Shown here one piece after another: positions 22,258 to 52,465 of a stretch of 64,000 nt of DNA. The position numbers were made by a program, and so were the translations under genes. Below the pieces are notes generated by a model, which was not told where the DNA came from, did not search any database, and saw nothing but the letters and a program-made list of their open reading frames with translations. This stretch comes from Alphaproteobacteria bacterium. Lineage in GTDB: Bacteria > Pseudomonadota > Alphaproteobacteria > Bin95. The stretch spans positions 2,145,666 to 2,209,665 of the forward strand of contig OZ219787.1 of NCBI GenBank assembly GCA_964291285.2, written 5' to 3'. Positions within the stretch are counted from its first letter, which is position 1. Each line of letters begins with the position of its first letter.

Positions 22258-22287
22258 TTGCTTTTATTCCTGTATGTTCTATATATA
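22258..22287 (+). promoter_or_regulatory. sigma70-like promoter upstream of HTH gene A
   Basis: TTGCTT-N16/17-TATATA/ATATAT in an AT-rich patch. Confidence 0.5.
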
Positions 22288-22442
22288 CCCTCATGGAGCT
22301 TGGAAACGGGCCGGAGGGAGACATGACCTGACGGGTCGGCGGCGTGACGCCGGGCACGATTTTTCCATGAGGGCTGCGGACCGGAAGGGGGGCGGCCGAC
22401 CAACAGGAGAGGTGCGCGCGCCGCATGGCGGAATTGCGGTCG

Positions 22443-22514
22443 GGCTCGAGGAAAACCGGCGGTTTTTTCCCTTCAGGCTCGACCGGCAACGGCGGTTTTT
22501 TTCAATCGGGCTCG
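22443..22514. repeat. 33-bp-period tandem repeats
   Basis: GGCTCG at 22443, 22476, 22509; first two units share GGCTCGA-N7-CGGCGGTTTTTT. Confidence 0.75.
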
Positions 22515-22553
22515 CCCCGTCGCGGCGGCGGAGCCGGAAGCGGAGGAGAAGCG

Positions 22554-22988
22554 ATGACGGATGAATCGACGAGGGCGCGGGCGGCCGCCCTGCCGGCGCC
22601 GAGGAGGGGCAGCCCGGTAGGCGAGGAGCTGCGGGCGCTCGCGGTCGCGGCGGTGCTGCGCGACGGGCAGAGCGTCGCCGAGGCGGCCCGGCGCTTCGGG
22701 CTGGGGGAGACGACGATCCGCGGCTGGATGAAGCGCTTTCGCGAGCGCGGCCATGTGCGGCCTGACTCGATGGGCGGCAGCGTCTCGCGGATCGGGCGCG
22801 CGCGGGAGCGCATCTTCAGCATCCTGGCGGAGCGCCCGGGGCTTTCCCTGACCGGGCTGCGCGATGCGCTCGCCGCCGAGGGCCTCGTGTTCGCGGTCTC
22901 CACGGTGCATCGCTTCCTGAAGCGCCACGGCATCGACCGCAAAACCCGCCCCGCCCGCGGCCGGGGCAAGCGGGGCAGCGGGCGGTAA
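22554..22988 (+). CDS. stand-alone IS630/Tc1-type double-HTH DNA-binding protein, no DDE domain (paralog A)
   Basis: GGAGGAG RBS; ELR..AVAAV..GQSVAEAARRFGLGETTIRGW.KR...G and second helix VSTVHRFLKRHG; stop followed by a hairpin, no catalytic domain downstream. Confidence 0.75.
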   Translation: MTDESTRARAAALPAPRRGSPVGEELRALAVAAVLRDGQSVAEAARRFGLGETTIRGWMKRFRERGHVRPDSMGGSVSRIGRARERIFSILAERPGLSLTGLRDALAAEGLVFAVSTVHRFLKRHGIDRKTRPARGRGKRGSGR

Positions 22989-23090
22989 CGGGCGGCGGGC
23001 TGCTTTTTTGCCGTCGCCCTGCCCCCACCGGCAGGCTCCCCCTCGCAAGCGAAGGAAAGGGGAATTGGGAGGCGCCGCCGGTGACTATGA

Positions 23091-23137
23091 CCCTCTCCCT
23101 CGGGGAGAGGGCTGGGTGAGGGCCGCGCGAAGCGCGG
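23091..23137. repeat. REP-like palindrome
   Basis: CCCTCTCCC-TCG-GGGAGAGGG stem; related copies near 17051 and 51541. Confidence 0.7.
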
Positions 23138-23195
23138 AATGGCGGGGCGGCGCAAAGGGGCTTTCGTGCGTGGCCGCTCTCGCTATGGTCGCGCC

Positions 23196-26100
23196 ATGAG
23201 CGATTCGGACGCGCAGACCGAACGGCAGAAGGACAGTATCGACGCTGCTGAAGTCGATACCTTCATTGAGCGGTGGGAGAAATCCGGCGGCTCGGAATCG
23301 GCGAATTTCCAGATGTTCGCCGGCGAACTCTGCGACCTTCTCGGCCTGCCGAGGCCCGATCCCTCGGAAGAGCGGAACGAATACAACGACTACACCTTCG
23401 AGCGGCGCATCGACTTCAAGCACGACAACGGCACTACCAGTCCGGGATGGATCGACCTCTACCTGCGCGGCTGCTTCGTCATGGAGGCAAAGCAATCCGC
23501 CAAGCAAAGAGCGAAGAAGACCGCCGACCCCCGCCAGACGGACATGCTTCCCGAAGACGCGATGCAGGTGAAGGCCGGCACGGCGACGCGCGGCACGCGC
23601 GGCTGGGACGGGGCGATGCGCGCCGCCAAGCGGCAGGCGGAGGACTATGCCCGCGCCCTGCCGGAGGAGCATGGCTGGCCGCCTTTCGTCCTGGTCGTCG
23701 ATGTCGGGCATGTCTTCGAGGTCTATGCCGATTTCTCCGGCCAGGGGAAAAACTATGCCCAATTCCCGGATCGGGAGGGCTATCGCATTCCGCTCGAAAG
23801 CCTGCGCGACCCGGAGGTCCGCGCCCGGCTCCGCGCGGTCTGGACCGACCCGCACTCGCTCGACCCCGTCCGGCGGAGCGCCGAGGTCACGCGCGAAATC
23901 GCCGAGCGCCTCGCCCGCATCGCCCGCAGCCTGGAGGACCGGGGGCGCCACCCCGAGGAGGTCGCCGAATTCCTGATGCGCTGCCTGTTCACCATGTTCG
24001 CCGAGGATGTCGGCCTGCTGCCGGAAAAGGGTTTCGAGACGCTGCTGGGCGATATGGTCGATACGCCGCAGCATTTCGCGCCGGCGCTGGAGGGCCTGTG
24101 GCAGGTCATGGACGAGGGCGGCTACGCCCCGCACCTGAACGCGACGGTGAGGCGCTTCAACGGCTCGCTCTTTAGCAAACGCACGGCGATTCCGCTGGAG
24201 GCGGACGAAATCGGCGAACTCCGGATCGCCGCCGGGCGCGACTGGCGCCATGTGGAGCCGGCCATTTTCGGCGCTTTGCTGGAACGCGCGCTGGACAAGC
24301 GGGAGCGCGCCAGACTCAATGCCCATTACACGCCGCGCGCCTATGTGGAGCGGCTGGTCGTGCCGACGATCATCGAGCCGCTGCGCGCCGACTGGGAGGC
24401 AGCGCTGGCGGAGGCCCATGCGCTGGACGAGGCGGGGGACCGCAACGCCGCGCTCGAGAGGGTCAAGGAATTCCACCACGCGCTTTGCACGACCCGCGTG
24501 CTGGACCCCGCCTGCGGCACCGGCAATTTCCTCTATGTCTCGCTGGAGTTGATGAAGCGGCTCGAAGGCGAGGCGCTGGATGCGCTGGAGGGGCTGGGCG
24601 AGGACGCGCCGCGCTTCGTCATGGAGGGGGAGACCGTCGGCCCGCGCCAGTTTTACGGGCTGGAGCTCAACCCGCGCGCCGTCGCCATCGCCGATCTGGT
24701 GCTGTGGCTCGGCTACCTGAAATGGCAGCTTCGCACCTTCCCGCCGGACCGGCTCGCCGAGCCCGTGCTGCACGCCTACGGCACGATCCGGGAGCAGGAT
24801 GCGGTTCTGGCCTGGGACAGGCAGGAGCTTCTTTGCGACGAAAAGGGCAGGCCGCTTTCCCGCTGGGACGGCGTGACCGTGAAGCTGCATCCGGTCACCG
24901 GGGAGGAGGTTCCCGACCCGGACGCGCAAGTGGAACTCTACCGCTACGAAAACCCGCGCCCGGCCGAGTGGCCGGAGGCGGAATTCGTCGTCGGCAACCC
25001 GCCCTTCGTCGGCGGCCTGAACATGCGCAGGGAATTGGGCGACGGCTACGCCGAAGCCTGCCGGGAGGCCCGTAAGAAGATTCCCGGCGGCGCGGATTTC
25101 GTCATGCATTTCTGGGACGAGGCCGCGACCCGCCTGCTGCGGAAGCCGAAGAAGGGGCAGCCGAACCCGCTGCGCCGCTTCGGTTTCATCACCACCAATT
25201 CGGTGACGCAGACCTTTTCCCGGCGCGTGATCGAGCGGCATATGGCGGCGAAGGAGCCTCTGGCGCTGGCCTGGGCTGTGCCGGACCATCCATGGCTGAA
25301 GGCAGCAGACAAGGCAGCGGTGCGCATCGCCATGACCGTTGCAGCGCGCGGCGGAAGCGAAGGCCGGCTGGCGACGGTTGAGCGGGAAGACGGGCTCAAC
25401 ACGGATACGCCGCTTGTCGAACTGAAGGAGCGGACCGGAAGGATCGCCGGCAACCTGAAAATCGGCGCGGACATCACGGCGGTCCGGCCACTATTGGCGA
25501 ACGATCTGGTTTCCAGTCCCGGCGTCAAGCTGCATGGCGAAGGCTTCAAAGTTACGCCGCGACAGGCGGAGGCTCTCGGTCTCGGCACGGTGCCGGGACT
25601 TGAAGATTATATCCTGCCCTACCGCAACGGCCAGGACATCGCCGGGCACCCGCGGGGCCTCATGGTGATCGACCTGTACCTGTTGGCGGCGGATGAAGTC
25701 CGTGAGCGGTTCCCGAAAGTTTATCAGCATGTCGTCGATCATGTGAAGCCGGATCGGGACCAGAACAACCGGCAGACCTATCGCGAGAATTGGTGGATTT
25801 TCGGCGAACCCCGTTCCGAATTAAGGCCGGTTCTGGAGCCGCTGAGCCGCTATATCGCAACGGCTGAAACATCGAAGCATCGGTTCTTCCAGTTTCTCAC
25901 TGCGGATATCCGGCCCGATAATCGGTTGATTTGCATCGGAACGTCCAAGTCTTGGTATTTGGCCATTCTTTCTTCCAGAATACACATAATTTGGACCTTG
26001 GCAGTGGGCGGGTTACTCGAGGACCGCCCGATTTATACGAAGAGTTCAACGTTTTCTCCGTTTCCGTTTGCGTTGGAATGTGCAGAAGACCGTTTGAACT

Positions 26101-26807
26101 TACTAGGCGAGCGCCTCGATACCTTCCGCAAGGAGCGGTTTGCCGAGAATGATTTTCTCACCATGACCTCGCTCTACAATGTGCTGGAGCGGGTGCGGGA
26201 GCTTGAGAGCGGTTACGAGGTTCCGGCCCTCACGCCGAAGGAGCGGGACATCCACGAAGCCGGGCTGGTGTCGGTCCTGAAGGAGATCCACGACGACATA
26301 GACCGCGCCGTCTTCGAGGCTTACGGCTGGGCCGACCTCGCGCCCGCGCTGGTCGGCAGGCCGGGCGCCACGATGCCCTCGCCGCACAAGACGCCGCAGC
26401 AGGAGCAGGCGGAGGAGGAATTGCTCGCCCGCCTCGTCGCGCTGAACCGGGAGCGGGCGGAAGAGGAGCAGGGCGGCGCCGTCCGTTGGCTGCGGCCGGA
26501 CTACCAGATACCGAGGCTCGGCCATAAGGCGAAGGGCGCGCAAGTGGAGGCGGACCTTGCCACGCCGGAAGCCGCCGCCGGCAAACCGGCATGGCCGAGG
26601 GAGGAACTGGCCCGCATCCGCGCGCTCCGCGACATGCTGGACCGCGCCGCCGCCCCCGCTAACGCGGAGACATTGAGCGCGGCTTTCAAAGGCAAGGATT
26701 CGCCCCGCCGGCGGAAAGCGGTGGAAAAGGCCCTCGAAACCCTCGCCGCCGCCGGCGCGGCGCAACGGACGGCGGACGGAGAGGGCCGCTATTTCATTCC
26801 CCGGTAG
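23196..26807 (+). CDS. type IIG/IIL (MmeI-like) fused restriction-modification enzyme
   Basis: N-terminal E...IDLYLRGCFVMEAK nuclease motif, HYTPR, LDPACGTGNF (motif I), GNPPF (motif IV), C-terminal TRD. Confidence 0.92.
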   Translation: MSDSDAQTERQKDSIDAAEVDTFIERWEKSGGSESANFQMFAGELCDLLGLPRPDPSEERNEYNDYTFERRIDFKHDNGTTSPGWIDLYLRGCFVMEAKQSAKQRAKKTADPRQTDMLPEDAMQVKAGTATRGTRGWDGAMRAAKRQAEDYARALPEEHGWPPFVLVVDVGHVFEVYADFSGQGKNYAQFPDREGYRIPLESLRDPEVRARLRAVWTDPHSLDPVRRSAEVTREIAERLARIARSLEDRGRHPEEVAEFLMRCLFTMFAEDVGLLPEKGFETLLGDMVDTPQHFAPALEGLWQVMDEGGYAPHLNATVRRFNGSLFSKRTAIPLEADEIGELRIAAGRDWRHVEPAIFGALLERALDKRERARLNAHYTPRAYVERLVVPTIIEPLRADWEAALAEAHALDEAGDRNAALERVKEFHHALCTTRVLDPACGTGNFLYVSLELMKRLEGEALDALEGLGEDAPRFVMEGETVGPRQFYGLELNPRAVAIADLVLWLGYLKWQLRTFPPDRLAEPVLHAYGTIREQDAVLAWDRQELLCDEKGRPLSRWDGVTVKLHPVTGEEVPDPDAQVELYRYENPRPAEWPEAEFVVGNPPFVGGLNMRRELGDGYAEACREARKKIPGGADFVMHFWDEAATRLLRKPKKGQPNPLRRFGFITTNSVTQTFSRRVIERHMAAKEPLALAWAVPDHPWLKAADKAAVRIAMTVAARGGSEGRLATVEREDGLNTDTPLVELKERTGRIAGNLKIGADITAVRPLLANDLVSSPGVKLHGEGFKVTPRQAEALGLGTVPGLEDYILPYRNGQDIAGHPRGLMVIDLYLLAADEVRERFPKVYQHVVDHVKPDRDQNNRQTYRENWWIFGEPRSELRPVLEPLSRYIATAETSKHRFFQFLTADIRPDNRLICIGTSKSWYLAILSSRIHIIWTLAVGGLLEDRPIYTKSSTFSPFPFALECAEDRLNLLGERLDTFRKERFAENDFLTMTSLYNVLERVRELESGYEVPALTPKERDIHEAGLVSVLKEIHDDIDRAVFEAYGWADLAPALVGRPGATMPSPHKTPQQEQAEEELLARLVALNRERAEEEQGGAVRWLRPDYQIPRLGHKAKGAQVEADLATPEAAAGKPAWPREELARIRALRDMLDRAAAPANAETLSAAFKGKDSPRRRKAVEKALETLAAAGAAQRTADGEGRYFIPR

Positions 26808-26897
26808 GGGCGTATCCCGTCCTCCTCGCGCCAAACTCTCTCCAGCTCGTTTCCGCCACCGTCACCGGCCGCGACGACAAGGGCGTGGGGCCGCTAC

Positions 26898-28911
26898 CCC
26901 GACTTCCGCAACTCGGCTTGAGAATCGACTGATTTGACGGTTTTCCGGCGCGAGAAGTGTCGGATTTCGGTGCAGTACCTCTCGGGACCGGCTTGTAGTG
27001 CCGACCTACCCCCTTGATCGGGCTGGCGAAGATCCGGACGCTGCGCTGATGTTCGTGCGCTGCAAGAGACGCTTCAAGGACGGCAAGGAGCACCGCTACT
27101 GGAGCGTTGTGGAGAACGTCCGGGTCCACGGCGGTCGGGTTGTTCAGCGTCAGGTGCTCTATCTCGGGGAGATCAACGACAGCCAGCGAGCGGCGTGGTG
27201 CCGCTCGATCGAGGTGGTGGAGGGCAAGTCGCGATCACGGCAGATGGCGCTGTTTCCCGAGGACCGGGAGGCGCCGGCGCTGACTTGCGAAGTGGTGAAG
27301 ATCGACCTCTCGCAGGTGGCGCTTCACGACCCGCGCCAGTGGGGGGCGTGCTGGCTGGCGCTGTCCTTGTGGGACCGCCTGGACCTGGACCGCTTCTGGG
27401 AAGAGCGGCTGCCGGCGAGCCGGCAAGGCACGCGGTGGCTGGACATCCTGAAGATCCAGGTCTGCTACCGGCTGATCGACCCGGGCAGCGAGTGGCGCCT
27501 TCACCGTCACTGGTATGAGCACAGCGCGCTTCGCGATCTTCTGGGTGGCGAGCGGGCGATCGCCGACGACACACTCTATCGCTGTCTCGACAAGCTGCTG
27601 GCGCACAAGCAGGGCTTCTTCTCGTTTCTGCGCGACCGCTGGGCGACGCTGTTCGAGGCGCGCTTCGACGTGCTGCTCTACGACCTGACCTCGACCTACT
27701 TCGAGAGCGATCCGCCGTTCGATGACAAGCGCCGCTTCGGCTACAGCCGGGACAAGCGGCCCGACTGCGTGCAGGTGGTGATCGCCCTGATCGTTACGCC
27801 GCAGGGCTTTCCGCTGGCCTATGAGGTGATGCCGGGCAACACCTCCGACGACACCACGCTGGCGGCGTTCCTCAAGAAGATCGAGGATCAGTATGGCCGC
27901 TCCGAGCGGGTGTGGATCATGGACCGCGGCATCCCCACCGAGGAGACGCTGGCCGCGATGCGCGAGGGCGAGGCGCCGGTGCGCTACCTGGTGGGCACGC
28001 CCAAGGGCCGGCTGACGCGGCTCGAGAAGGTGTTCCTGGGCCTGCCCTGGCAGGAGGTGCGCCAGTCCGTGACTGTCAAGCTTCTGGTCGAGGATGGCGA
28101 GCTCTACGTCCTGGTGCGCAGCGAGGGGCGGCAGGTGAAGGAACGCGGCATGCGCCGGCGCCGGCTGAAGAGGCTGTGGCGTCGATTGGCCGAGTTGCAA
28201 GGGCAGTCGAACAGCCGGGATCAGTTGTTGCTCAAGCTCGGCGCCGCCAGGAAGGAGGCCGGCCGGGCCTGGAGCCTGGTCGACATCACCGTGCCCGGGA
28301 CCGACAGCGAACTCGCCGCCAACGGCTTCTCATTCCGCCTGCAGCGCGACCGGCTGCGCCAGGTCCGCCGCCGCGAGGGCCGTTACCTGCTGCGATCCAA
28401 CATGGTCGCCGAAGACCCCGCCACGCTGTGGCATCTGTACATGCAGCTCGTCGAGATCGAGCAGGCGTTCAAGGAACTCAAGCACGACCTCGCGATCCGC
28501 CCCATCTTCCATCAGCGCCAAGAGCGCATCGAGGCGCATATCTTCGTCTCGTTCATCGCCTACTGCCTGCTGGTGACCCTGAAGAACCTCGCCCGGCCGC
28601 GCGCCCCGGGCCTCACCCCACGCGCCATCCTTGAGGCCTTCGCCACCATCCAGATGGTGGACGTCCATCTGCCAACCACCGACGGCCGGCACCTCGTCCT
28701 GCCGCGCCACACCCGGCCGAACAAGGAGCACGAGCTACTGCTGCAACAGCTCGGCATGACCTGGCCGCAGCAACCCGCACCCCGGATCTCCGCCTGACGG
28801 CACACGGCGCCGCCTCTCCGTTCGCCGCCTTGTAGTGCCGACCCTCGGGGAGACGATCAAGGCTATTCAATGAGTTAGCATCCTCATGACCCCCGAGTTG
28901 CGGAAGTCGGG
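26898..28911 (+). mobile_element. IS1634-family insertion sequence, copy 1 (2014 bp)
   Basis: 19-bp terminal IRs CCCGACTTCCGCAACTCGG; CTAC duplicated at 26894-26897 and 28912-28915. Confidence 0.93.
27049..28797 (+). CDS. IS1634-family DDE transposase
   Basis: YDLTSTYFE, GYSRDKRPD, MDRGI, IEQAFKELK, RPIFHQ..RIEAHIF. Confidence 0.93.
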   Translation: MFVRCKRRFKDGKEHRYWSVVENVRVHGGRVVQRQVLYLGEINDSQRAAWCRSIEVVEGKSRSRQMALFPEDREAPALTCEVVKIDLSQVALHDPRQWGACWLALSLWDRLDLDRFWEERLPASRQGTRWLDILKIQVCYRLIDPGSEWRLHRHWYEHSALRDLLGGERAIADDTLYRCLDKLLAHKQGFFSFLRDRWATLFEARFDVLLYDLTSTYFESDPPFDDKRRFGYSRDKRPDCVQVVIALIVTPQGFPLAYEVMPGNTSDDTTLAAFLKKIEDQYGRSERVWIMDRGIPTEETLAAMREGEAPVRYLVGTPKGRLTRLEKVFLGLPWQEVRQSVTVKLLVEDGELYVLVRSEGRQVKERGMRRRRLKRLWRRLAELQGQSNSRDQLLLKLGAARKEAGRAWSLVDITVPGTDSELAANGFSFRLQRDRLRQVRRREGRYLLRSNMVAEDPATLWHLYMQLVEIEQAFKELKHDLAIRPIFHQRQERIEAHIFVSFIAYCLLVTLKNLARPRAPGLTPRAILEAFATIQMVDVHLPTTDGRHLVLPRHTRPNKEHELLLQQLGMTWPQQPAPRISA

Positions 28912-28990
28912 CTACCGCTCCCGCGACCTCTGCCTTGCCTGGATGAACGCGCTCGCCGCCGGCGATCCCGATGCGGAGATCGACCTGTAG
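28912..28990 (+). pseudogene. C-terminal remnant of an Eco57I-like type IIG R-M gene, split by the IS
   Basis: Joining across the target duplication gives AWGRYRSRDLCLAWMNALAAGDPDAEIDL*, resembling the tail of large type IIG methylase-nucleases. Confidence 0.55.
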
Positions 28991-29045
28991 GGACACGGCC
29001 CCTGCCGCCGCTATAGTGCCGCCGCCGTAGAGGGGAGGTGTGCGC

Positions 29046-29690: not shown

Positions 29691-29737
29691 CGTCCCGTTC
29701 CGAAGCTCACGCGCCGTCGCCCGGGGCTCCCCACCCC

Positions 29738-29823
29738 GTCATGCCCGGACTTGTTCCGGGCATCCATTTCCGCCGCTGCGATGGCCCCCGAGGGAGATGC
29801 CCGGAACAAGTCCGGGCATGACG
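29738..29823. repeat. REP/RPE inverted pair between convergent genes
   Basis: CGTCATGCCCGGACTTGTTCCGGGCATC ... GATGCCCGGAACAAGTCCGGGCATGACG, perfect inverted copies. Confidence 0.9.
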
Positions 29824-29878
29824 ATATGGAGGCATGACGGAGGCGGACGACGTTCGGCCGCGCCGGAGAAGCAGGCCG

Positions 29879-30391: not shown

Positions 30392-30396
30392 GGGCC

Positions 30397-31184: not shown

Positions 31185-31338
31185 CTCCCGGAATCCCCTT
31201 CTTCCGAGGCGCCCGGCGCCAAATTACAGCCCGGCCGGGGCCGGCGCCAGCGTCCCGGCCGGGGCGGCTCATCACTTTTCCGTGTGCATCCGGGCCGCCT
31301 TTCCGTTACACTGAAGGTTCGGCCATCGCGGCCGCGAT

Positions 31339-31385
31339 ACGCAAGATGTTGTGGGTATTGGCCAAAAACCGCGTACTTGTTGTGT
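31339..31385 (+). promoter_or_regulatory. tandem NrdR boxes
   Basis: ACGCAAGATGTTGTGG (31339) and CGCGTACTTGTTGTGT (31370), 31 bp apart, just upstream of nrdA. Confidence 0.7.
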
Positions 31386-31398
31386 GTGGAGGCGGGAT

Positions 31399-34016: not shown

Positions 34017-34063
34017 CCGGCGACGGCCACGGGCCGGAAGGGGCAAAGGCCCGCTACAGCGAG

Positions 34064-35263: not shown

Positions 35264-35271
35264 GCCGGGGC

Positions 35272-36493: not shown

Positions 36494-42316
<5,823 letters not shown>

Positions 42317-42380
42317 CCCGCGGGCGCTCCGGGCGGATAAGGACCCCGTTGCAGCGAGGCGATGGAGCGCGAACGAGGCC

Positions 42381-42677
42381 ATGCGAGCATGCATCTTCAG
42401 CCCGACCCGCACGGCGATGCAGCAGGGCCGGGGACGGACCGGCATGTGGGTGGTCGAGTTCGAGCAGGAATCGGCCCGACAGCTTGATCCGCTCATGGGC
42501 TGGACCAGCTCCCGCGACACCCGCCAGCAGGTGCGGCTGGAATTCGCGACGCAGGAGGCGGCCCTCGCCTATTGCGAGAAGCGCGGCCTCGAATACAGCC
42601 TGCGCGCCCCGCAGCAGCGCCGCGTGAGACCGAAGGCCTACGCGGACAATTTCCGCTGGAACCGGGTCTCCGGGTAA
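42381..42677 (+). CDS. ETC complex I subunit, NDUFS4-like
   Basis: IFSP.RTAMQQG, DPLMGWTSS.DT..QV.L.F, KAYADNF. Confidence 0.9.
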   Translation: MRACIFSPTRTAMQQGRGRTGMWVVEFEQESARQLDPLMGWTSSRDTRQQVRLEFATQEAALAYCEKRGLEYSLRAPQQRRVRPKAYADNFRWNRVSG

Positions 42678-42687
42678 GCGGACATGC

Positions 42688-42764
42688 GCGCCCTTAGCTC
42701 AGCTGGATAGAGCAGCGGACTTCTAATCCGCAGGTCGGAGGTTCGAGTCCTCCAGGGCGCGCCA
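42688..42764 (+). tRNA. tRNA-Arg (anticodon UCU)
   Basis: GCGCCCU/AGGGCGC acceptor stem, GCGGA-CUUCUAA-UCCGC, GUUCGAGUC T loop, CCA end. Confidence 0.96.
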
Positions 42765-43017
42765 ATGACCGAATTGCATCGCGCCGCGATCACGAGCGAG
42801 ACGAATACCCGACTGAGCAGCTTGCGCCGCGGCAGGCCAAAGGAGACGCTGCCGTGGCCGCCGAAGACGAGGCGCCATTGTCTCATCCCGGCCGCCCGCG
42901 ACATCGACGGAAGCCCGGTCTGCCGGACCGAAGCGCTTCAGGTGGGTGCGCGGACGCCTTGCCCGGGGCGCGCATGTTTCCGCCCCGATTTGACAACACT
43001 CAACCATTTCGTCCTAA

Positions 43018-45031: not shown

Positions 45032-46612
45032 ATAGGTCCCGCGCGCGTTAAGGACTGCCGTGTAGATCGCCGCACCGGGCTCCCGCGCCATGTCCGAGGC
45101 GCAGACATGCTGCAGGAAGGCCTCCGCTCCCGGTCCCTCCACCTCGATCTTGCCGAAGGGGCTGAGGTCGAAGACGGCGGCTCGCTCGTGGGCGGCCATG
45201 ACCTCCCCGCGCACGGCCTCGAACCAGTCCGGCCGGTCGAAGCTGAGCGCGGGCTCAGCGGTCTTGCCGAACCAGAGCGGCCGCTCCCAGCCGTAGAACT
45301 GTCCCAAATGGGCCCCGGCGGCGTGGTGCTCGGCGTCGAGCGGCAGGTGGCGCAGGTCCCGAGCGGTGGCGGGTTGCCGTCCCGGATACGCGATCTCGTA
45401 ATGGGTGCCGAGGATTTCCGGGGCGCGGGCCATCAGGTGCTCGACCCTGTCGAAGACCGGCGCAAAGCGCATGGCGTCGGCTTCCGAGAGGTCGTAGGCG
45501 GTATGGCCGTGGACGATGCAGTGGGCGAGGTTCATGCCCGCGCCGCCGGCGGAGGCGACGCCGACCGAGTTCATGCCGCAGCCGAGGAAGAGACCCCGCG
45601 TCTCCGCCGTCTCGCCCAGCATGAACATGCCGTCCGGCGTGAAGCTCTCCGGCCCGTTCAGCAGCATCCGGGCCTCGGCGGTCTCCAGCACCGGCAGGCG
45701 GTGCAGCGCATTCACCATCATCGGCTCGAAATGGTCCCAGTCCTCCGGCAGGAGGCCGAAGGCGAAATCCTCGCCGAGCGCGCCGGGCGGTATCGGTTTG
45801 CCCATCGGCTCGAAGCAGCCGATCAGCAGCCCGCCGCTGTCGTCGCGGATATAGAGGCGGCCGTCATGGTCGGAGAGGGTGGGCACATTGCCGTCGATGC
45901 CCTCCACCGGCCCCGTCAGCAGGTAGAAATGCTCGCAGGCGAGCAGCGGCGCCCGCGCGCCGGCCATCGCGGCGACCTCGCGCGACCAGAGCCCCGCGCA
46001 GACCGCAACGGCGTCGCACATCACCGCGCCCGCGCTCGTCTCGACGCCGCGCACCCGCCCGTTTCCGGTGAGGATGCCCGTCACGCGCACATCCTCGAAC
46101 AGCCGGGCCCCGCGCGCCCGCGCCCCTCTGGCCAGCGCCGCCGAGACATCGGTGGGGCCGACCCGCCCGTCCCCCGGCGACCAGACCGCGCCCAGCACGT
46201 CATCCGCGTTCATCAGCGGCCAGCGCTCCTTCGCCTCGCCGGGGCTTATCGACTCCGCCTCGACGCCGAAGGCATGGGCGAGCGCCTCCTGTCGGCGGAT
46301 GTGGGTCAGCCGGTCCGGCGTCGTGGCGATCGACAGCGAGCCCTTGCCGATCCAGCCGGTGCTCTGGCCGGTTTCGCGCTCGAGCCGGGAATAGAGGTCG
46401 ATGGAATAGCGGATCATGCGCGTCAGGTTGCGCGAATGGCGGAGCGCGCGGACCTGCGCCGCCGAATGCCATGTCGTGCCGGAGGCGAGCTTGTCCCGCT
46501 CCAGCAGGATCGCGTCGCCGACGCCCATCACCGCGAGATGGTAGAGGGTGGAGCAGCCCATGACGCCGCCGCCGATGACGACGACCGAGGCGTGCGCGGG
46601 AAGGCCGGTCAC
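45032..46612 (-). pseudogene. GcvT-family FAD oxidoreductase (sarcosine/dimethylglycine dehydrogenase-like), 3'-truncated by IS
   Basis: GGGVMG, SGTTWHSA, NGPESFTPDG, GWERP, FDLSPFGK; breaks at LNARGTY into the IS end, GcvT C-terminal part missing. Confidence 0.88.
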
Positions 46613-46631
46613 GGTCTCGGGGCCCACCGGG

Positions 46632-47462
46632 CTATTTCTGGCAGACCGGGCAGAAGAAGGTGGACCGGCCCGACCGGACGCTGCGCCGGACGGTGGCGCC
46701 CTTGCGCCCGCAGGGACAGGGGCTGCCCTCGCGCCCGTAAACCCGCCAGCTGTGCTGGAAATAGCCGAGTTCGCCCGAGGCCTGCACATAGTCGCGCAGC
46801 GAGGAGCCGCCGGCCGCCACGGCCTGCTCCAGCGTCCCCCGGACGGCCCTGGCGAGCGCGCGCGCTTCGGCCGCCGAAAGGTCGCCGGAAGGCCGGTCGG
46901 GGTGGAGCCGCGCCCGGTTCAGCGCCTCGCAGACATAGATGTTGCCGAGCCCGGCGATGCGCCGCTGGTCGAGCAGGGCGGCCTTGAGCGGCGCGCGCCG
47001 GCCGGCGAACAGCGCCCGCAGCCGGCGGCCGGTGAGCTCCGGCCCGAGCGGCTCGATGCCGAGGCCGGCGAGCCGGGGATGGTCCGCCAGCGCGCCGGGC
47101 GCGATCAGGTCCATGTAGCCGAAGCGCCGCGCGTCGCGGTAGATCAGGTGCTGCCCGTCGTCGGTCTCGACGATCAGGTGGTCGTGGCGGTCGGGCTCGG
47201 GCGCCGGGCCCTCGCCCAGCATCATCCTCCCGGACATGCCGAGATGGGAGAGCCATGTCGCGCCGTCGTCCAGCGCCGCGAGGATGTATTTCGCCCGCCG
47301 GTCGAAGCCCTCGATGCGCCGCCCCTGCAACCGGGCCGCGAACCGCTCCGGCAGGGGGAAGCGCAGGTCCGCCCGGCGCTGCTCGACGCGCGCGAGCCGC
47401 CGGCCGGCAAGCGCCTTCGCCAGCCCCCGCATCACGGTCTCGACTTCCGGCAATTCGGGCAT
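46632..47462 (-). CDS. mutM: formamidopyrimidine-DNA glycosylase
   Basis: MPELPEVE, HLGMSG, GLGNIY, C-terminal zinc finger ending CPVCQ. Confidence 0.96.
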   Translation of the reverse strand: MPELPEVETVMRGLAKALAGRRLARVEQRRADLRFPLPERFAARLQGRRIEGFDRRAKYILAALDDGATWLSHLGMSGRMMLGEGPAPEPDRHDHLIVETDDGQHLIYRDARRFGYMDLIAPGALADHPRLAGLGIEPLGPELTGRRLRALFAGRRAPLKAALLDQRRIAGLGNIYVCEALNRARLHPDRPSGDLSAAEARALARAVRGTLEQAVAAGGSSLRDYVQASGELGYFQHSWRVYGREGSPCPCGRKGATVRRSVRSGRSTFFCPVCQK

Positions 47463-47539
47463 GGGCGGCAAGGCTAGTGCGTTTCGGGGGGCGGCGCACA
47501 GCCTATCGGCGGCGGCGGGGGTGGATTATGGTTCGGCCG

Positions 47540-48283
47540 ATGAGCGGGGCGAACAGAGATTCGGTCGATTTCGGCTTTCGGGATGTGCCGAGGGGGGACA
47601 AGGCCCGGCTCGTGCGCGGCGTGTTCGACAGCGTGGCGCCCCGCTACGACCTGATGAACGACCTGATGAGTTTCGGCGTCCACAGGCTGTGGAAGGCGGC
47701 GCTGGTCCGCGCGCTACGGCCGCGGCCCGGCATGGCGCTGCTCGATGTCGCGGGCGGCACGGGGGACATCGCCGTTGCCGCCGCGGCCGAAGGGGCGCGC
47801 GCCGTCGTCGTCGATATCAACGAGGACATGGCGTCCGCCGGGCGCGACCGGGCGTTCGACCGGGGCTGCATGGAGGTCGGCTGGGCCGTCGCCGACGCCG
47901 AGGCGCTGCCCTTCCCGGACATGAGCCAGGACGCGGTGACCATCGCCTTCGGCCTGCGCAATGTCACCGGCCGCGAAAAGGCGCTCTCGGAGATGCGCCG
48001 GGTGCTGAAGCCGGGCGGGCGGTTCTTCTGCATGGAGTTCTCCCAGGTGGCGGCGCCGGCGCTGAGGGCCCTCTATGAGCGCTACGCCTTCGGCGTGCTG
48101 CCGCGCCTCGGCGCGCTGGTGGCCGGCGACGCGGACGCCTACCGCTACCTGGCCGAGAGCATCGCCCGGTTCCCCGACCGGGAGGCGCTCGCAGCGTCCA
48201 TGCGCGCCGCCGGCTTCGGCCGGGTGCGCTGGAGCATCCTCTCGGGCGGCGTCGTCGCGCTGCATCGCGGCTGGCGCCTCTGA
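47540..48283 (+). CDS. ubiE: ubiquinone/menaquinone C-methyltransferase
   Basis: VFDSVA.RYDLMNDLMSFG.HRLWK, DVAGGTGD, YLAESI. Confidence 0.95.
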   Translation: MSGANRDSVDFGFRDVPRGDKARLVRGVFDSVAPRYDLMNDLMSFGVHRLWKAALVRALRPRPGMALLDVAGGTGDIAVAAAAEGARAVVVDINEDMASAGRDRAFDRGCMEVGWAVADAEALPFPDMSQDAVTIAFGLRNVTGREKALSEMRRVLKPGGRFFCMEFSQVAAPALRALYERYAFGVLPRLGALVAGDADAYRYLAESIARFPDREALAASMRAAGFGRVRWSILSGGVVALHRGWRL

Positions 48284-48284
48284 C

Positions 48285-49793
48285 GTGCTGGATTTCGCGC
48301 GCCACGTCCTGCGCCTCGGACGGATCGGCTGGACCCTGGCCCGCCACGACGCGCTCTGGCCGCTGGAGCTCGCCCAGGGGCTGGAGACGGCCGCCATGCT
48401 GGCCCGCCTCGTCAGCCGGAGGCGCCCGGAACGGCGCCGGGGCGAGCGGCTCGCCGCCGCCCTGCAGGCCCTCGGGCCGACCTTCGTCAAGTTCGGCCAG
48501 GCGCTTTCGACCCGCGCCGACCTGCTGGGCGAGGACGTGGCGGACGACCTCGCCGACCTCCAGGACCACCTCCCGGCGCTGCCGTTCGAGACCATGCGCA
48601 GGAGCATCGAGGAGCAGTTCGAGACGCCGCTCGCCGAGCTGTTCTCGGATTTCGACACCGAGGCCGTCGCCGCCGCCTCGATCGCGCAGGTCCACCTCGC
48701 GAGGACGCCCGAGGGCGCGCCGGTGGCCGTCAAGATATTGCGCCCGGGGATTGAGCAGGCCGTCGCCAACGACCTGCGCCTGTTCCTCTGGGTGGCGCGC
48801 TGGCTGGAGCGGCTCGCGCCGTTCTCGCGGCGGCTGCACCCCGTCGATGTCGTGCAGACCTTCGCCGAGAGCGTCCGCATCGAGATGGACCTCCGGCTGG
48901 AGGCGGCCGCGGCGACCGAGCTTGCGGGGAATTTCGGCGACGAGGCGCATTTCAGGGTGCCGTCGGTGGACTGGCGGCGCACCGCGCGCCGCGTGCTGAC
49001 CCTGGAGCGGGTGGAGGGCCTGCCCGTGGACGAGGTGGACGCGCTCCAGGCCGCCGGGCACGACCCGGACGCCATCATGGCGACCGCGGCGGAAGTGTTC
49101 TTCAAGCAGGTCTTCCGCGACGGCTTCTTCCACGCCGACATGCATGCCGGCAATATCTTCGTGGCCCCCGACGGGGCCATCGTGCCGGTCGATTTCGGCA
49201 TCATGGGCCGGCTCGACCGCCCGACGCGCGAATATCTGGCGGAAATGCTGCTGGGTTTCCTCTCACGCGACTATGAGCGGGTGGCGGCCGTGCATTTCCG
49301 CGCCGGCTACGTCCCCGCCGACCAGTCGCAGGCGCTCTTCGCCCAGGCGGCGCGCTCCATCGGCGAGCCGATCCTCGAACGGCCGCTGAACGAGATTTCC
49401 GTCGCCCGCCTGCTTCGTCAGCTGTTCCACGTAACGGCGCAGTTCCGCATGGAGACCCAGCCGCAATTGCTGCTGTTGCAGAAGACCATGCTGATGGCGG
49501 AGGGCATGGGCCGGCGGCTCAACCCGAATGTCAACATCTGGGAGATGGCGCGGCCGCTGATCGAGGAATGGATGCTGGACCGGCTCCACCCGGTCAACCG
49601 CGCCCGGCATGCGGCGTCCGAGCTGCGCGGGCGCGTCGACCGCTTCTTCGTCACCATGGACCGGATCGACCTGGCGCTGGAGCGCATCGCGGAGAGCGAG
49701 TCGACGCAGAGGCGCGGCATCCCGGTCCAGATCCAGGGCCTTCTCGGCGGCCTCGCGCTGCTGATCCTGCTGGCGGCGATCCTGTTCGACTGA
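48285..49793 (+). CDS. ubiB: ubiquinone biosynthesis kinase-like protein
   Basis: LGPTFVKFGQ, AAASIAQVH, VAVKILRP, FFHADMH, DFGIMG. Confidence 0.95.
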   Translation: MLDFARHVLRLGRIGWTLARHDALWPLELAQGLETAAMLARLVSRRRPERRRGERLAAALQALGPTFVKFGQALSTRADLLGEDVADDLADLQDHLPALPFETMRRSIEEQFETPLAELFSDFDTEAVAAASIAQVHLARTPEGAPVAVKILRPGIEQAVANDLRLFLWVARWLERLAPFSRRLHPVDVVQTFAESVRIEMDLRLEAAAATELAGNFGDEAHFRVPSVDWRRTARRVLTLERVEGLPVDEVDALQAAGHDPDAIMATAAEVFFKQVFRDGFFHADMHAGNIFVAPDGAIVPVDFGIMGRLDRPTREYLAEMLLGFLSRDYERVAAVHFRAGYVPADQSQALFAQAARSIGEPILERPLNEISVARLLRQLFHVTAQFRMETQPQLLLLQKTMLMAEGMGRRLNPNVNIWEMARPLIEEWMLDRLHPVNRARHAASELRGRVDRFFVTMDRIDLALERIAESESTQRRGIPVQIQGLLGGLALLILLAAILFD

Positions 49794-49841
49794 AGCGGCA
49801 ACGCTTCCCCCCCGCGCCGAACAGGACTAAAAGCGGGTTCC

Positions 49842-51056
49842 ATGCTGGACGGCAAACGCATTCTGCTGATCGTCGCGGGCGGCGTCGCCGCCTACAAGAG
49901 CCTGATCCTCGTGCGCCGCCTGCGCGAGCGCGGCGCGGCGGTGCGCGCGGTGCTGACGGCCGGCGGGGCGGAGTTCGTCACCCCCCTCTCGCTCGCCGCG
50001 CTCACCGAGGACAGGGTCTATCAGGAGCTGTTCTCGCTGACCGACGAGAGCGAGATGGGCCATATCCGCCTCTCCCGCGAAGCCGACCTCGTGGTGGTCG
50101 CGCCGGCCACGGCCGACCTGATGGCGAAGATGGCCGCGGGCCTCGCCGACGACCTCGCCTCCACCGCGCTCATCGCCACCGACAAGCCGGTGCTGGTCGC
50201 GCCCGCCATGAATGTCGAGATGTGGGGCCACGCCGCGACGCAGGCCAACATGGCGCTGCTGGAGCGCCGCGGCGTGCTGCGCGTCGGGCCGGGGGCGGGC
50301 GACCTTGCCTGCGGCGAGACCGGCGCCGGGCGCATGGCGGAGCCGGAAGAGATCGTCATCGCCATAGAGAACGCGCTCGCCGGCCGGGCATCTGGGGCGC
50401 TCGCGGGCCGGCGCGCGGTCGTCACCAGCGGCCCCACCTGGGAGCCGATAGACCCGGTGCGCTACATCGCCAACCGCTCCTCCGGCAAGCAGGGACACGC
50501 CATTGCAGGCGCGCTCGCCCGCCACGGCGCGGAGGTAGTGCTGGTCACCGGCCCGACGCATGAGCCCGACCCGGCGCATGTGCGGATCGAGTGCATCGAG
50601 ACGGCGCGCGAGATGCTGGACGCCTGCATGGCCGCGCTGCCGGCGGACATCGCGGTCTGCGCGGCGGCGGTCGCGGACTGGCGGGTGCGCGAGGCGGCGG
50701 GCGAAAAGCTCAAGAAGGAAAACGGCGGCCTGCCCGCGCTCGAACTCGCCGAGAACCCCGACATCCTCCACCGGCTCGCCAGCCTGGAGAACCGCCGCCC
50801 GCCGCTGGTGGTGGGCTTCGCGGCCGAGACGGAGAATGTGGTGGCACACGCCCGCGAGAAGCGCCGGCGCAAGGGCTGCGACTGGATCCTCGCCAACGAC
50901 GTGTCGCCCGGCACCGGCACCTTCGGCGGCGAGCGCAACACGATCCACCTCATCGACGAGGAGGACCGCGTGGAGGACTGGCCGCCGGTCGCCAAGGCGG
51001 AGGTGGCCGAACGCCTCGCGCTGCGCATTGCGGACCGCTTCGCCGCCGGCGCATGA
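49842..51056 (+). CDS. coaBC: phosphopantothenoylcysteine decarboxylase/synthetase
   Basis: GGVAAYK, APAMN, LACGETGAGRM, DPVRYIANRSSGKQG, GFAAET. Confidence 0.96.
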   Translation: MLDGKRILLIVAGGVAAYKSLILVRRLRERGAAVRAVLTAGGAEFVTPLSLAALTEDRVYQELFSLTDESEMGHIRLSREADLVVVAPATADLMAKMAAGLADDLASTALIATDKPVLVAPAMNVEMWGHAATQANMALLERRGVLRVGPGAGDLACGETGAGRMAEPEEIVIAIENALAGRASGALAGRRAVVTSGPTWEPIDPVRYIANRSSGKQGHAIAGALARHGAEVVLVTGPTHEPDPAHVRIECIETAREMLDACMAALPADIAVCAAAVADWRVREAAGEKLKKENGGLPALELAENPDILHRLASLENRRPPLVVGFAAETENVVAHAREKRRRKGCDWILANDVSPGTGTFGGERNTIHLIDEEDRVEDWPPVAKAEVAERLALRIADRFAAGA

Positions 51057-51508
51057 CGGAGAGGATCGAGGTCCGCATCCAGCGCCTGCCCCACGCGCCG
51101 GGCCTGCCGGAATACGCGACGGCCGGCAGCGCCGGCCTCGACATCGCGGCGGCCGTTGCGGCGGACGAGCCGCTGGAGCTTGCCCCCGGCGCCCGCGCGC
51201 TGGTGCCGACGGGGCTGCGCCTCGCCGTGCCGGAGGGCTGGGAGGCGCAGGTAAGGCCCCGCTCCGGCCTCGCGCTCCGCCACGGGCTGACCCTGCCGAA
51301 CAGCCCCGGCACCATCGATTCCGACTATCGCGGCGAGCTGCAGGTCATCGTGATGAACGCCGGCGCCGAGCCCGTCCGCATCGAGCGCGGCATGAAGATC
51401 GCCCAGCTCGTCCTCAAGCCCGCCCCCCGCGTCGCCTGGCGCGAATGCGCGGAACTGGACGAGACGGAGCGGGGAGAGGGCGGCTTCGGCTCGACGGGAA
51501 CGGGGTAG
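51053..51508 (+). CDS. dut: dUTPase
   Basis: GSAGLD, RPRSGLA, PGTIDSDYRGE, RGEGGFGSTG. Confidence 0.97.
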   Translation: MTERIEVRIQRLPHAPGLPEYATAGSAGLDIAAAVAADEPLELAPGARALVPTGLRLAVPEGWEAQVRPRSGLALRHGLTLPNSPGTIDSDYRGELQVIVMNAGAEPVRIERGMKIAQLVLKPAPRVAWRECAELDETERGEGGFGSTGTG

Positions 51509-51540
51509 GGGGCCTGCCGCTGCTTCCGCTGGCGCGGAAG

Positions 51541-51745
51541 CCCCCTCTCCCATCCTCTCCCATCCTCTCCCCGCAAGCGGGGAGAGGGGAATTTGCGGCG
51601 GGCCGCCCCACCACCGTCACCCCCGCGAAGGCGGGGATCCATCCCTGACCGTTTGCGTCCGCCGCAGCCGGTCGGAGCAGGGCCGGACCGCCCATGCCTG
51701 CCGGGCGTGTCGGGGATGGACCCCGGATCGGGGTCCGGGGTGACG
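51541..51745. repeat. cluster of REP/RPE-like palindromes
   Basis: CCTCTCCCCGC-AA-GCGGGGAGAGG stem; CGTCACCCCCGCGAAGGCGGGGATCCATCC ... GGATGGACCCCGGATCGGGGTCCGGGGTGACG pair. Confidence 0.75.
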
Positions 51746-51788
51746 ATAGGGGCGCGCGGCGGGAAGAGGGGCGGGGGACGCCGCGCCC

Positions 51789-51841
51789 TGTGGATAACTT
51801 CCTCCCCAGGGGTTGCAATTCGGGAAAATAAGCCCTAAATA
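51789..51841 (+). promoter_or_regulatory. DnaA-box sequence plus sigma70-like promoter upstream of HTH gene B
   Basis: TGTGGATAA (51789-51797); TTGCAA (51813)-N17-TAAATA (51836). Confidence 0.5.
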
Positions 51842-51972
51842 GCCGCCCATACAGGTATGAAGCAGGAACGATGACCTGGTGAACCGAGCCGCATTGCGGC
51901 CATCAGACGGGATTTCGGCGGCTGAAAGGGGATGAGGCCGCAGACGGGGGAGCTGCGCGCGCGGACACGCAA

Positions 51973-52022
51973 CGTTCCATTAGAGAAGACATGAGGGCGT
52001 TCCATTGGAGAAGGCACAAGGG
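51973..52022. repeat. 25-bp tandem direct repeat
   Basis: CGTTCCATTAGAGAAGACATGAGGG / CGTTCCATTGGAGAAGGCACAAGGG. Confidence 0.8.
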
Positions 52023-52045
52023 CCGGGCGCGGCCGGGGAGAGCGT

Positions 52046-52465
52046 ATGGTGAAAGAGTTGACGGGACACAGGCGCGGCAAGCCTGCCGGCGAGGAGCTCA
52101 GGCGCCGGGTGGTCGCCGCGGTGCTGGAGAAGGGGATGACCGGCCATGCCGCGGCCCTGCATTACGAGGTAAGCGAAAGCAGCGTCGCGCGGTGGGTCCG
52201 GCGCTACCGGCAGCACGGCCACCTGTGCGAGGCCCCGAGGCCCGGCCGCCCGTCGCGGACGGAGCCGGAGCGGGAGCGGATTTTCGCCGTCCTGGAGAGG
52301 CGCCCGAACATCTCCATCCGCGCGCTGCAGCAGGCGCTTGCCGCCCGGGGCGTGGTCCTGGGCGTGGGCTCGCTGCAACGCTTCCTGGCACGCCACGGCG
52401 TCCAGTGCGGCCGCCGCCCCGTACGGCGCCGCAAGCGCGCCCCGAAGGCCGGCGGCCGCGCTTGA
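52046..52465 (+). CDS. stand-alone IS630/Tc1-type double-HTH DNA-binding protein, no DDE domain (paralog B)
   Basis: RRGKPAGEELR..VVAAVL, VSESSVARW, RERIF, ALAARG, RFLARHG; aligns with 22554-22988. Confidence 0.75.
   Translation: MVKELTGHRRGKPAGEELRRRVVAAVLEKGMTGHAAALHYEVSESSVARWVRRYRQHGHLCEAPRPGRPSRTEPERERIFAVLERRPNISIRALQQALAARGVVLGVGSLQRFLARHGVQCGRRPVRRRKRAPKAGGRA

Follow-up and report, generated by a model that had tools for sequence, protein, structure and literature searches.

The window analysed here, a stretch of 64,000 nucleotides (G000:C3:2145666-2209665) from an alphaproteobacterial genome of 6.13 Mb in five contigs with 68% GC, contains two genes, p1 and p2, which encode stand-alone, paired-like double helix-turn-helix (HTH) proteins. 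Judging from the sequence comparisons below, p1 and p2 are probably two members of a genus-restricted, monophyletic and largely SOS-gated family of domesticated or semi-selfish genes, which derives from the OrfA protein of IS630 insertion sequences (IS). The original prediction for this DNA had proposed a selected family of transposase-derived regulators rather than IS debris, in which each gene heads a defence locus. A maintained family is indeed what we find, with its 43 loci, its common clade, its syntenic orthologues and its conserved promoters and leaders; the role as defence regulators is not supported.

The two genes and their family

The proteins encoded by p1 and p2 (positions in Table 1) share 44% identity over 112 amino acids (aa; E 3e-30), so that the two reading frames are homologous, as predicted, and paralogues. 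The expected IS630/Tc1-type double HTH was recovered as well: the Pfam families HTH_23, HTH_28, HTH_29 and HTH_32 match both proteins alike, both cover just the N-terminal positions 1-124 of the 299 in the NCBIfam IS630 transposase model (52-62 bits; cut-off 100), and the fold matches described below agree. Neither protein has a DDE domain, again as proposed, and none of the 32 DDE_3 matches of the genome lies in the window. The frame of p1 opens further upstream, with an in-frame ATG at 22425, the gene being the 3' part of this frame; a strong Shine-Dalgarno (SD) sequence, GGAGGAG, and the family alignment favour 22554 over 22425 as the start.

A tblastn search with p1 and p2 (E <= 1e-5) yielded 44 family loci in this genome, with 40-68% protein identity. 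Since the p2 locus is counted twice through a repeat on contig C2, 43 of them are distinct. This repeat of 13.4 kb (window 40579-54004, including the p2 locus) recurs with 99.98% identity at the end of C2 (G000:C2:1420249-1433674, reverse), with an identical p2 copy at C2:1421791-1422207, and reflects one of two things, an overlap in the assembly that would join C2 to C3 or a segmental duplication of recent origin.

We compared 40 other genomes, 16 from the same genus and 24 from other genera. At E <= 1e-10, 14 of the 16 congeners matched; 12 gave 4-41 matches, two gave 2 and two none, and these numbers are not equal to copy numbers. Outside the genus, 3/24 genomes matched, with one or two matches each. 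In the two low-count congeners and the three outside genera, the best matches belong to ordinary IS630 elements of two open reading frames (ORFs), whose OrfA frames measure 133-159 aa; these elements have CTAGAGCG... ends and a DDE domain (LVFIDETW) downstream in another frame, and for two of these genomes complete elements could be recovered, ~1.06 kb long and with inverted repeats. All public records that hold the family are titled 'MAG: Alphaproteobacteria bacterium' (MAG, metagenome-assembled genome), with one exception titled Chloroflexi. Among ~185,000 species genomes, the composite pattern of LexA box and micro-ORF introduced below appears in 11 stretches, and these all lie in MAGs holding the family. 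A related-locus search gave no match from p1 alone, and from a short-leader protein it matched one congener only.

No DDE-like frame was found within ~4 kb of p1 or p2. With the DDE frames of the resident IS630 and of four related IS630 elements as queries and flanks of 3-4 kb, a DDE_3-like frame appeared near 2/124 family loci; both are copies of the unrelated resident IS630 of 1,174 bp, one of them on the opposite strand. The resident IS630 has ends of its own (ATACCAGCGG...), TA duplications and an HTH ~33% identical to that of the family. Neither terminal inverted repeats (TIRs) nor TA target duplications were seen in filled versus empty comparisons at seven family sites, and an overlapping orfB within an element with ends was not found at the family loci.

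The closest homologues are not full-length IS630 transposases: in a collection of 5.8 billion proteins, the best 120 of 319 matches measure 133-221 aa, at 56-92% identity, and their names, where they have any, are 'transposase' or 'helix-turn-helix domain-containing protein'. No fused forms occurred at E <= 1e-5 among 8000 longer candidate proteins, which is weak evidence. HMMER gave 1,116 matches at E <= 1e-3 over 1.84 billion representatives; most of the best 150 are 68-260 aa long; the long ones among them are arrays of 5-12 matched stretches, and only two look like a single stretch, of ~300-350 aa. Arrays of the domain also exist, in proteins of 313-2283 aa from the representative library with 4-12 repeated matches to p1, and one short-leader member of this genome (G000:C3:2006614-2007156; L137:4980-5675) is a 232-aa fusion of about two and a half tandem HTH units.

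Origin and fold

A maximum-likelihood tree of 111 sequences (FastTree, LG+gamma), with the resident IS630 HTH as its root, groups the 99 long-leader members in a single clade (support 0.905) that contains no IS OrfA. Because of this clade, and because neither a DDE partner nor a fused form was found, the long-leader family is best read as a single-origin derivative of an IS630 OrfA. The family proteins, of ~130-150 aa, stop soon after RHGxxRKK, which is the same end as in the IS630 OrfA frames of G013, G015, G019 and G033 (133-159 aa); their clean stop at a common length is most simply the ancestral OrfA stop. Frameshifting IS families, IS630 included, are described in a passage of PMC5009743 as yielding an upstream DNA-binding product that is able to regulate alone.

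Five short-leader copies of this genome (L115, L116, L118, L148 and L149) mix with six true IS630 OrfAs in the tree. These copies are OrfA-only, also without DDE and TIRs, and they retain -35 boxes and GTTC-N7-GTTC-like repeats 40-75 nt ahead of the start. Promoter and box may therefore have been captured before the long leader arose, or on two occasions.

An AlphaFold2 model built from a 33-sequence alignment (mean predicted local distance difference test score 73.5, predicted template modelling score 0.38) comprises two units of three helices each (residues 24-65 and 84-124), followed by a basic tail that is disordered. Its top Foldseek matches are the paired domains of Pax5 and Pax6 (E ~1e-3, template modelling score 0.52-0.58), followed by the DNA-binding domain of SETMAR in complex with the Hsmar1 TIR, by Mos1 and by the bipartite domain of Tc3. 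The sequence profile matches Prd, Pax-8 and the PAI subdomain of Sleeping Beauty with E 2e-4 to 8e-4. For ISY100, a member of the IS630 family, a passage of PMC2170065 reports that an N-terminal double HTH binds the terminal inverted repeats.

Promoter, LexA box, micro-ORF and leader

Our survey of the upstream regions covered 126 units, 44 from this genome and 82 (at 80 loci) from its relatives. Each copy is a monocistronic module of ~0.7-0.9 kb, and nucleotide homology between paralogues extends from 10-25 nt ahead of the -35 box to the stop codon, with unrelated flanks. The layout foreseen in the original prediction, namely promoter, minimal upstream ORF (micro-ORF), leader block, tandem repeats and gene, is found at both p1 and p2 (Table 1), and promoter and leader are conserved in the family: a micro-ORF, starting 32-41 nt past the -10 box, is present in 102/126 units, and of these 102 units 49 have a perfect CTTGAC-N15-18-CTATAT promoter and 86 have one with no more than two mismatches. 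Most spacers measure 16 nt (62 units) or 17 nt (18 units). In a control, 5/2,000 random 87-nt windows came within two mismatches of this consensus, and the whole genome has 16 exact CTTGAC-N16/17-CTATAT sites, of which 14 precede family genes. CTTGAC/CTATAT is given as the sigma-70 consensus of Sinorhizobium in a passage of PMC2873474.

The -10 box of the family is overlapped by a LexA-type 15-mer such as GTTCTATATAAGTTC, which in 68/126 units has at most one mismatch in its eight half-site positions. The lexA gene of the organism (C3:1242759-1243427) carries GAACCAATATAGAAC, the reverse complement of GTTCTATATTGGTTC, and this operator is identical to the box of the paralogue C3:1818853; the recA box, GTTCCTGAAATATTC, has one mismatch. 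GTTC-N7-GTTC is named as the alphaproteobacterial LexA motif in part of a published text (PMC8565304). With at least 5/7 A/T in the spacer, the genome contains 28 GTTC-N7-GTT[CT] sites, 12 of which lie upstream of family genes (190-370 nt, sense). Genes flanking the other 16 include lexA, an S24 peptidase, an MmcB-like repair gene, an SRAP gene, a glyoxalase/bleomycin-resistance family gene and an N6/N4 methylase, and five of these boxes lie inside ORFs.

The micro-ORF most often consists of MT and a stop (64 units); the other versions, each likewise closed by a stop, are MIWT (11 units), MTWT (9), MIWI (7), MTW as in p2 (4), MTWS (3), MTWI (2), MTWK (1) and MI (1). A change of TGA to TGG always comes with a new stop no more than two codons on, and the micro-ORF always closes after 2-4 codons, although the copies are related and the events not independent. 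The exact 11-mer CATGACCTGAC has 11 genomic occurrences, 9 of them in family units, with 2 for the reversed control. The two copies outside recognised units lie at G000:C1:595892-595902 (-) and C3:1168897-1168907 (-); one of them, 1.46 kb upstream of the family gene C3:1167034, may be a leader parted from its gene by an insertion or an orphan leader. A resemblance of the micro-ORF motif to the left end of IS630, GTGATCTGA..., was noted by eye in three relics; it spans just an 11-mer, the right ends of these relics are not recoverable, and we make no claim that the motif derives from that end.

Leaders are 139-465 nt long (median 247), and 48/102 contain the block GAGGTGCGCGCGC with at most two mismatches; the block was rejected as the start site of another small ORF, as no consistent start codon follows it. 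Tandem repeats (Tandem Repeats Finder, TRF; period >=15) occur in 18/100 leaders and mostly end 12-37 nt ahead of the start codon, and a strong, GGAGGAG-like SD sequence lies 5-7 nt ahead of the ATG of the family genes. The leader is not a globally structured RNA. Rfam gave no leader match at gathering score or E <= 1, RNAalifold predicted 0 pairs on 99 leader starts, and the z-score of the minimum free energy has a median of 0.1 over 52 leaders, with 4/52 below -2. Local hairpins past the micro-ORF looked compensatory by eye, and a terminator-like hairpin of p1 (22481-22497) does not go beyond what shuffled sequences give.

No 3' end or terminator is conserved among the units (5/102 have a T5+ run no further than 140 nt past the stop), and similarity downstream of them stems from palindromes that resemble repetitive extragenic palindromes or miniature inverted-repeat transposable elements (REP/MITE). 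One REP/MITE-like element of ~130 nt, CTCATCCTGAGTAGCG...CGTATCGAAGG...CTACTCAGGATGAGG, follows ~10-13 of the 102 units (e.g. L141, L142 and L117) and is once found inside a leader. A palindromic intergenic repeat, CCCTCTCCC...GGGAGAGGG, lies beside p1 at window positions 23090-23139, at 17049-17093 and, upstream of p2, at 51540-51590.

Inheritance and conservation

Synteny of the flanks assigns approximately 26 of the 82 units from relatives to a counterpart in this genome, with 14 of its loci involved, and these copies were inherited in place. Syntenic pairs have 92-98% nucleotide identity and the closest paralogues within the genome at most 89%, and identical or near-identical copies are absent from the genome except for the 13.4-kb segmental duplicate. 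The nearest neighbour in the tree belongs to another genome for 17 of the 29 long-leader copies of this genome, and to the same genome for 12.

In the family alignment, 24 invariant and 31 nearly invariant positions outline the helices; variable positions, as seen by eye, fall at the third helix of either HTH or close to it. An intact in-frame coding sequence of 330-560 nt is present in 100/102 units. Gaps number 15 in coding sequences versus 85 in the shorter leaders, a density about ten times lower in the coding part, counted in the 20 closest independent sister pairs only, since the nucleotide aligner splits gaps in the full set of 49 sister pairs.

Neighbouring genes

The downstream genes named in the original prediction were found as described, with an MmeI-type IIG restriction-modification (R-M) gene after p1 and an island of toxin-antitoxin (TA), methylase and helicase genes after p2 (Table 1). 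Across the family, we took two downstream ORFs per locus from a simple gene call based on GC content at third codon positions (GC3) and ran Pfam on all 88. R-M, McrBC or TA families follow 6/43 distinct loci (p1, p2, L123, L131, L136 and L146), as a raw count of downstream neighbours. IS transposases follow five loci; the remaining downstream genes encode LysR, rhodanese, amidase, Rho, aminotransferase, PhoX, CoA-transferases or succinate dehydrogenase subunits, or have no Pfam match. The first downstream gene is co-oriented at 23/44 loci, and PADLOC has no model for p1 or p2 (0 families each).

The MmeI-type gene is present in six other congeners and is preceded by a p1 orthologue in only one of them, G005, where the block of p1 and MmeI gene adjoins different genes than in G000. 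Synteny with five congeners stops within ~20 nt past the stop of a dehydrogenase gene at 22153, which places p1 at the edge of a variable region. The island after p2 exists in four copies with 99.3-99.8% identity (here, C3:1427647, C4:659909 and C4:786291); its genes are those for an HmaA-like HTH_3-SNF2-NOV_C helicase, a UvrD/GajB-like helicase (low GC) and an HmaB-like DUF1156 methylase, and its insertion cut the dcm gene at ~53762-53909, 1.3 kb beyond p2. Because of the small share of loci with defence genes, the near-even orientation of the downstream genes and the mobile nature of this four-copy island, the defence linkage appears incidental and is not a rule of the family, and a role of every member as the regulator at the head of a defence locus is not supported.

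Elsewhere in the window, an inverted pair of IS (26883-28914 and 43015-45046), each of 2,032 bp with a 599-aa DDE_Tnp_1 transposase and 100% complementary to the other, brackets 14.1 kb of housekeeping genes, among them those for ribonucleotide reductase, major facilitator superfamily transporters, CTP synthase, enolase and tRNA-Arg(tct). Near-identical copies of this IS number at least 50 over all five contigs. With this copy number and the inverted arrangement, the segment may be able to invert or may represent a composite transposon. In the conserved core region upstream of p1 lies a tRNA-Sec gene (17352-17446, minus strand; anticodon tca).

Table 1. Features of the p1 and p2 loci in the window.
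Feature	Position	Strand	Remarks
p1 promoter	22257..22284	+	-35 CTTGCT 22257-22262, 16-nt spacer, -10 CTATAT 22279-22284; 2 mismatches to CTTGAC-N16-CTATAT
p1 LexA-like box remnant, GTTCTATATATACCC	22276..22290	+	left half-site kept, right lost; 3 mismatches in 8 half-site positions
p1 micro-ORF, ATG ACC TGA	22323..22331	+	within the conserved motif CATGACCTGAC; GGAGGGA upstream
p1 conserved SD-like leader block, GAGGTGCGCGCGC	22409..22421	+	
p1 tandem repeat	22457..22519	+	period 33, 1.9 copies, 80% match (TRF)
p1, 144-aa stand-alone paired-like double-HTH protein	22554..22988	+	SD GGAGGAG 22542-22548
MmeI-family type IIG R-M gene, neighbour of p1	23139..26807	+	Pfam MmeI_N/hel/Mtase/TRD; PADLOC REase_MTase_IIG, 1469 bits
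p2 promoter-like site	51812..51840	+	GTTGCA 51812-51817, 17-nt spacer, CTAAAT 51835-51840; 4 mismatches to consensus
p2 micro-ORF, ATG ACC TGG TGA	51871..51882	+	MTW variant
p2 conserved leader block, GAGCTGCGCGCGC	51950..51962	+	
p2 tandem repeat	51973..52023	+	period 25, 2.0 copies, 84% match (TRF)
p2, 139-aa stand-alone paired-like double-HTH protein	52046..52465	+	
FitA-like antitoxin and 46-aa PIN toxin remnant, neighbours of p2	52547..52945	+	antitoxin 52547-52792, toxin remnant 52805-52945; Pfam FitA-like_RHH
Truncated C5 DNA methylase (dcm)	53172..53909	+	Pfam match covers positions 1-114 of 324
Left part of mobile island of at least 10 kb	53762..64000	+	HmaA-like SNF2 helicase, UvrD helicase, HmaB/DUF1156 methylase; runs off the contig end

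Proposed mechanism and alternative explanations

The family would descend from OrfA, the DNA-binding product that is made without frameshifting in a two-ORF IS630 element. Catalytic orfB and terminal inverted repeats are absent, and the OrfA-length gene now resides in a self-contained monocistronic module with a near-consensus alphaproteobacterial sigma-70 promoter and, in about half of the copies, a putative LexA operator over the -10 box. The predicted transcript opens with the micro-ORF of 2-4 codons ~30 nt in, followed by the leader of 150-300 nt with its GAGGTGCGCGCGC block, often repeats, and then the strong SD sequence. In the box-bearing copies only, very strong promoters would be repressed by LexA until DNA damage occurs. 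With their two HTH motifs, the proteins may bind specific DNA in the way in which IS630/Tc1 transposases recognise the ends of their elements; the likeliest targets would be the repeats or the motif in their own leader (autoregulation), with further sites possible, and the fast evolution of the proteins could reflect a diversifying DNA specificity. Defence genes would adjoin p1 and p2 since the modules occupy variable intergenic regions, and would not form a regulon.

A bolder extension of this mechanism is speculative and, to our minds, unlikely. The transposase-derived family would then constitute the largest block of the SOS regulon, in which 20-40 LexA-gated promoters of perfect consensus fire together upon DNA damage, and every transcript would begin with a two-codon minigene and encode a fast-diversifying, sequence-specific DNA-binding protein. 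The products would jointly rewire transcription or chromosome handling throughout the genome, or the minigenes would signal damage by loading or stalling ribosomes, and each paralogue would read its own leader repeats and private sites.

Several observations weigh against a maintained, SOS-gated family. Purifying selection is weak: the Nei-Gojobori ratio of nonsynonymous to synonymous substitution rates (dN/dS) has a median of 0.69 over 82 pairs with dS 0.05-0.2, and p1 reaches 1.2-1.6 against its orthologues, so that the value below one anticipated for a selected family is found in the close pairs and not in p1. The same script gives 0.06-0.27 for flanking core genes and 0.22-0.28 for the MmeI gene. 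All these values are rough since a GC3 near 90% depresses dS, and the high dN/dS fits weak constraint as well as diversification. Moreover, 68% GC lets long frames survive by chance, which makes ORF intactness weak evidence. The promoters of p1 and p2 are off consensus by 2 and 4 mismatches, and an E. coli-type consensus promoter scan gave 0 sites at either gene, the consensus matched here being the alpha-rhizobial one. A look-up of RNA data sets for window positions 22200-23100 returned no entry. As p1 keeps only half of a LexA box, with the right half-site equally lost in three p1 orthologues, and p2 has none (5 mismatches in eight half-site positions), SOS control is not claimable for the two window copies; the family box could also be bound by the HTH proteins themselves and not by LexA. 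An SD-like 4-mer precedes just 50/102 micro-ORFs, and the motif may therefore act as DNA or RNA and not as an ORF. Finally, there are signs of a turnover like that of mobile elements: at 8 other sites (10 units), flanks that are 3-96 nt apart in this genome enclose 0.9-3.3 kb in a relative, all intergenic, and at one of these sites the flanking genes are convergent and separated by 3 nt, which is more readily explained by an insertion than by a deletion.

These polymorphic sites also speak for the view that the modules are selfish non-autonomous mobile units, composed of a promoter and a DNA-binding gene and moved in trans or otherwise, without benefit to the host. The unrelated flanks of the paralogues, with homology confined from just ahead of the -35 box to the stop codon, agree with it, as do counts that range from 0 to 43 per genome within one genus, the high dN/dS and the different placement of p1 and MmeI gene in G000 and G005. 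We nevertheless give this view a minor, if real, chance, as neither inverted repeats nor target duplications were found at seven inspected junction sets (a single possible duplication of ~45 nt, at the gene end, occurs at L070 only), nor a conserved 3' end in the downstream flanks; paralogues remain clearly more distant than orthologues, with no near-identical copies besides the 13.4-kb duplicate; and the resident IS630 has different ends and a distant HTH. A clearly improbable alternative is that the proteins are OrfA-type regulators that bind IS630 ends, repress transposition and so confer immunity against the parent family. Binding of inverted repeats by the double HTH of an IS630-family transposase, as a passage of PMC2170065 reports, would fit this, and so would the 32 DDE_3 matches in the genome. 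Against it stand the separate clade and the low identity to the resident IS630 HTH, the near confinement to the units of CATGACCTGAC, whose likeness to the GTGATCTGA... left ends of IS630 relics in G013 and G015 is an 11-mer that chance could yield, and a number of diverged paralogues, about forty, that far exceeds the needs of one IS type.

That each gene is a regulator heading the adjacent defence locus is very improbable and, as a family rule, largely refuted. The case for it consists of p1, which lies 150 nt upstream of the co-oriented R-M gene in a pair kept in G005, of the FitA antitoxin following p2, and of the four further loci with McrBC, TA or Type ISP genes downstream; it is outweighed by the survey above, in which only 6 of the 43 loci had such a gene in the next two ORFs, by the five other congeners whose R-M gene has no preceding family gene, by the missing PADLOC match and by the later insertion of the island after p2. 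A small HTH gene beside a defence gene is thus weak evidence for a defence regulator. We regard neutral debris of decayed IS630 copies as the least credible source of these genes. The missing DDE domain, the high dN/dS, the frames kept open by chance in a GC-rich genome and the grouping of the five short-leader copies with true IS630 OrfAs would be in keeping with decay, but the nearly universal in-frame coding sequences, the common OrfA-length end, the invariant fold-defining residues, the scarcity of coding indels relative to leaders in close pairs, the consensus promoters kept across subfamilies and the syntenic orthologues in several species all contradict it. An expanded family derived from IS630 OrfA, domesticated or semi-selfish, therefore remains our preferred explanation.

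Comparison with known systems

InsA of IS1 and OrfA of IS911 behave as products that comprise only the DNA-binding part. The family proteins resemble such OrfA/InsA products (IS1, IS3/IS911 and frameshifting IS630) in being small, in consisting of the DNA-binding part only and in ending at the frameshift window. They differ in having no orfB, TIR or surrounding element, in the consensus promoter, long leader and micro-ORF that each gene has of its own, and in forming ~40 diverged copies per genome, in contrast to the identical copies of an IS. That an OrfA/InsA-type product can regulate on its own is stated in a passage of PMC5009743. In the open-access literature, we found no description of a bacterial IS630 OrfA that was freed from its element and expanded into a multigene family.

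In its box-bearing copies, the family recalls the alphaproteobacterial LexA regulon, with a GTTC-N7-GTTC direct repeat over the -10 box that in the paralogue C3:1818853 has the very sequence of the lexA operator of this organism. Unlike in the usual regulon, one paralogous family accounts for 12/28 candidate boxes, its product has no evident SOS function, and many copies, including p1 and p2, have lost the box. A product of mobile elements holds nearly all perfect sigma-70 promoters and close to half of the LexA boxes of the genome, and this share of boxes would alter the reading of the SOS regulon in these uncultured bacteria. An SOS control of integron integrases is described in part of a published text (PMC3323433).

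The 2-4 codon ORF at the predicted 5' end of the transcript, kept as an ORF through changes of TGA to TGG, is comparable to other minimal upstream ORFs. Start-stop elements and the two-codon bar minigenes of phage lambda belong to this class. The family differs from them in that an SD-like 4-mer is present at only half of its micro-ORFs, whose translation is predicted. A conserved micro-ORF of this size at a fixed distance from the promoter could nevertheless serve as a clean test case for minimal upstream ORFs in Alphaproteobacteria.

With the N-terminal domain of IS630/Tc1/mariner transposases (ISY100, Tc3, Mos1 and Sleeping Beauty), the family shares two three-helix HTH units and a basic linker; unlike in these enzymes, the protein is not joined to a DDE domain, and its identity to the solved domains is ~20-25%. 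Domestication of transposase DNA-binding domains is well known from eukaryotes, with Pax, CENP-B and SETMAR as examples, in which the domain was kept after transposition had been lost. The family studied here resembles them in this respect, its own domestication being putative, and differs from them in being bacterial, massively multi-copy, confined to one genus and free of fusions to other domains. As a natural series of ~100 diverged paired-like domains, whose genes each carry a candidate cognate site in the leader, it would be well suited to studies of how DNA specificity evolves.

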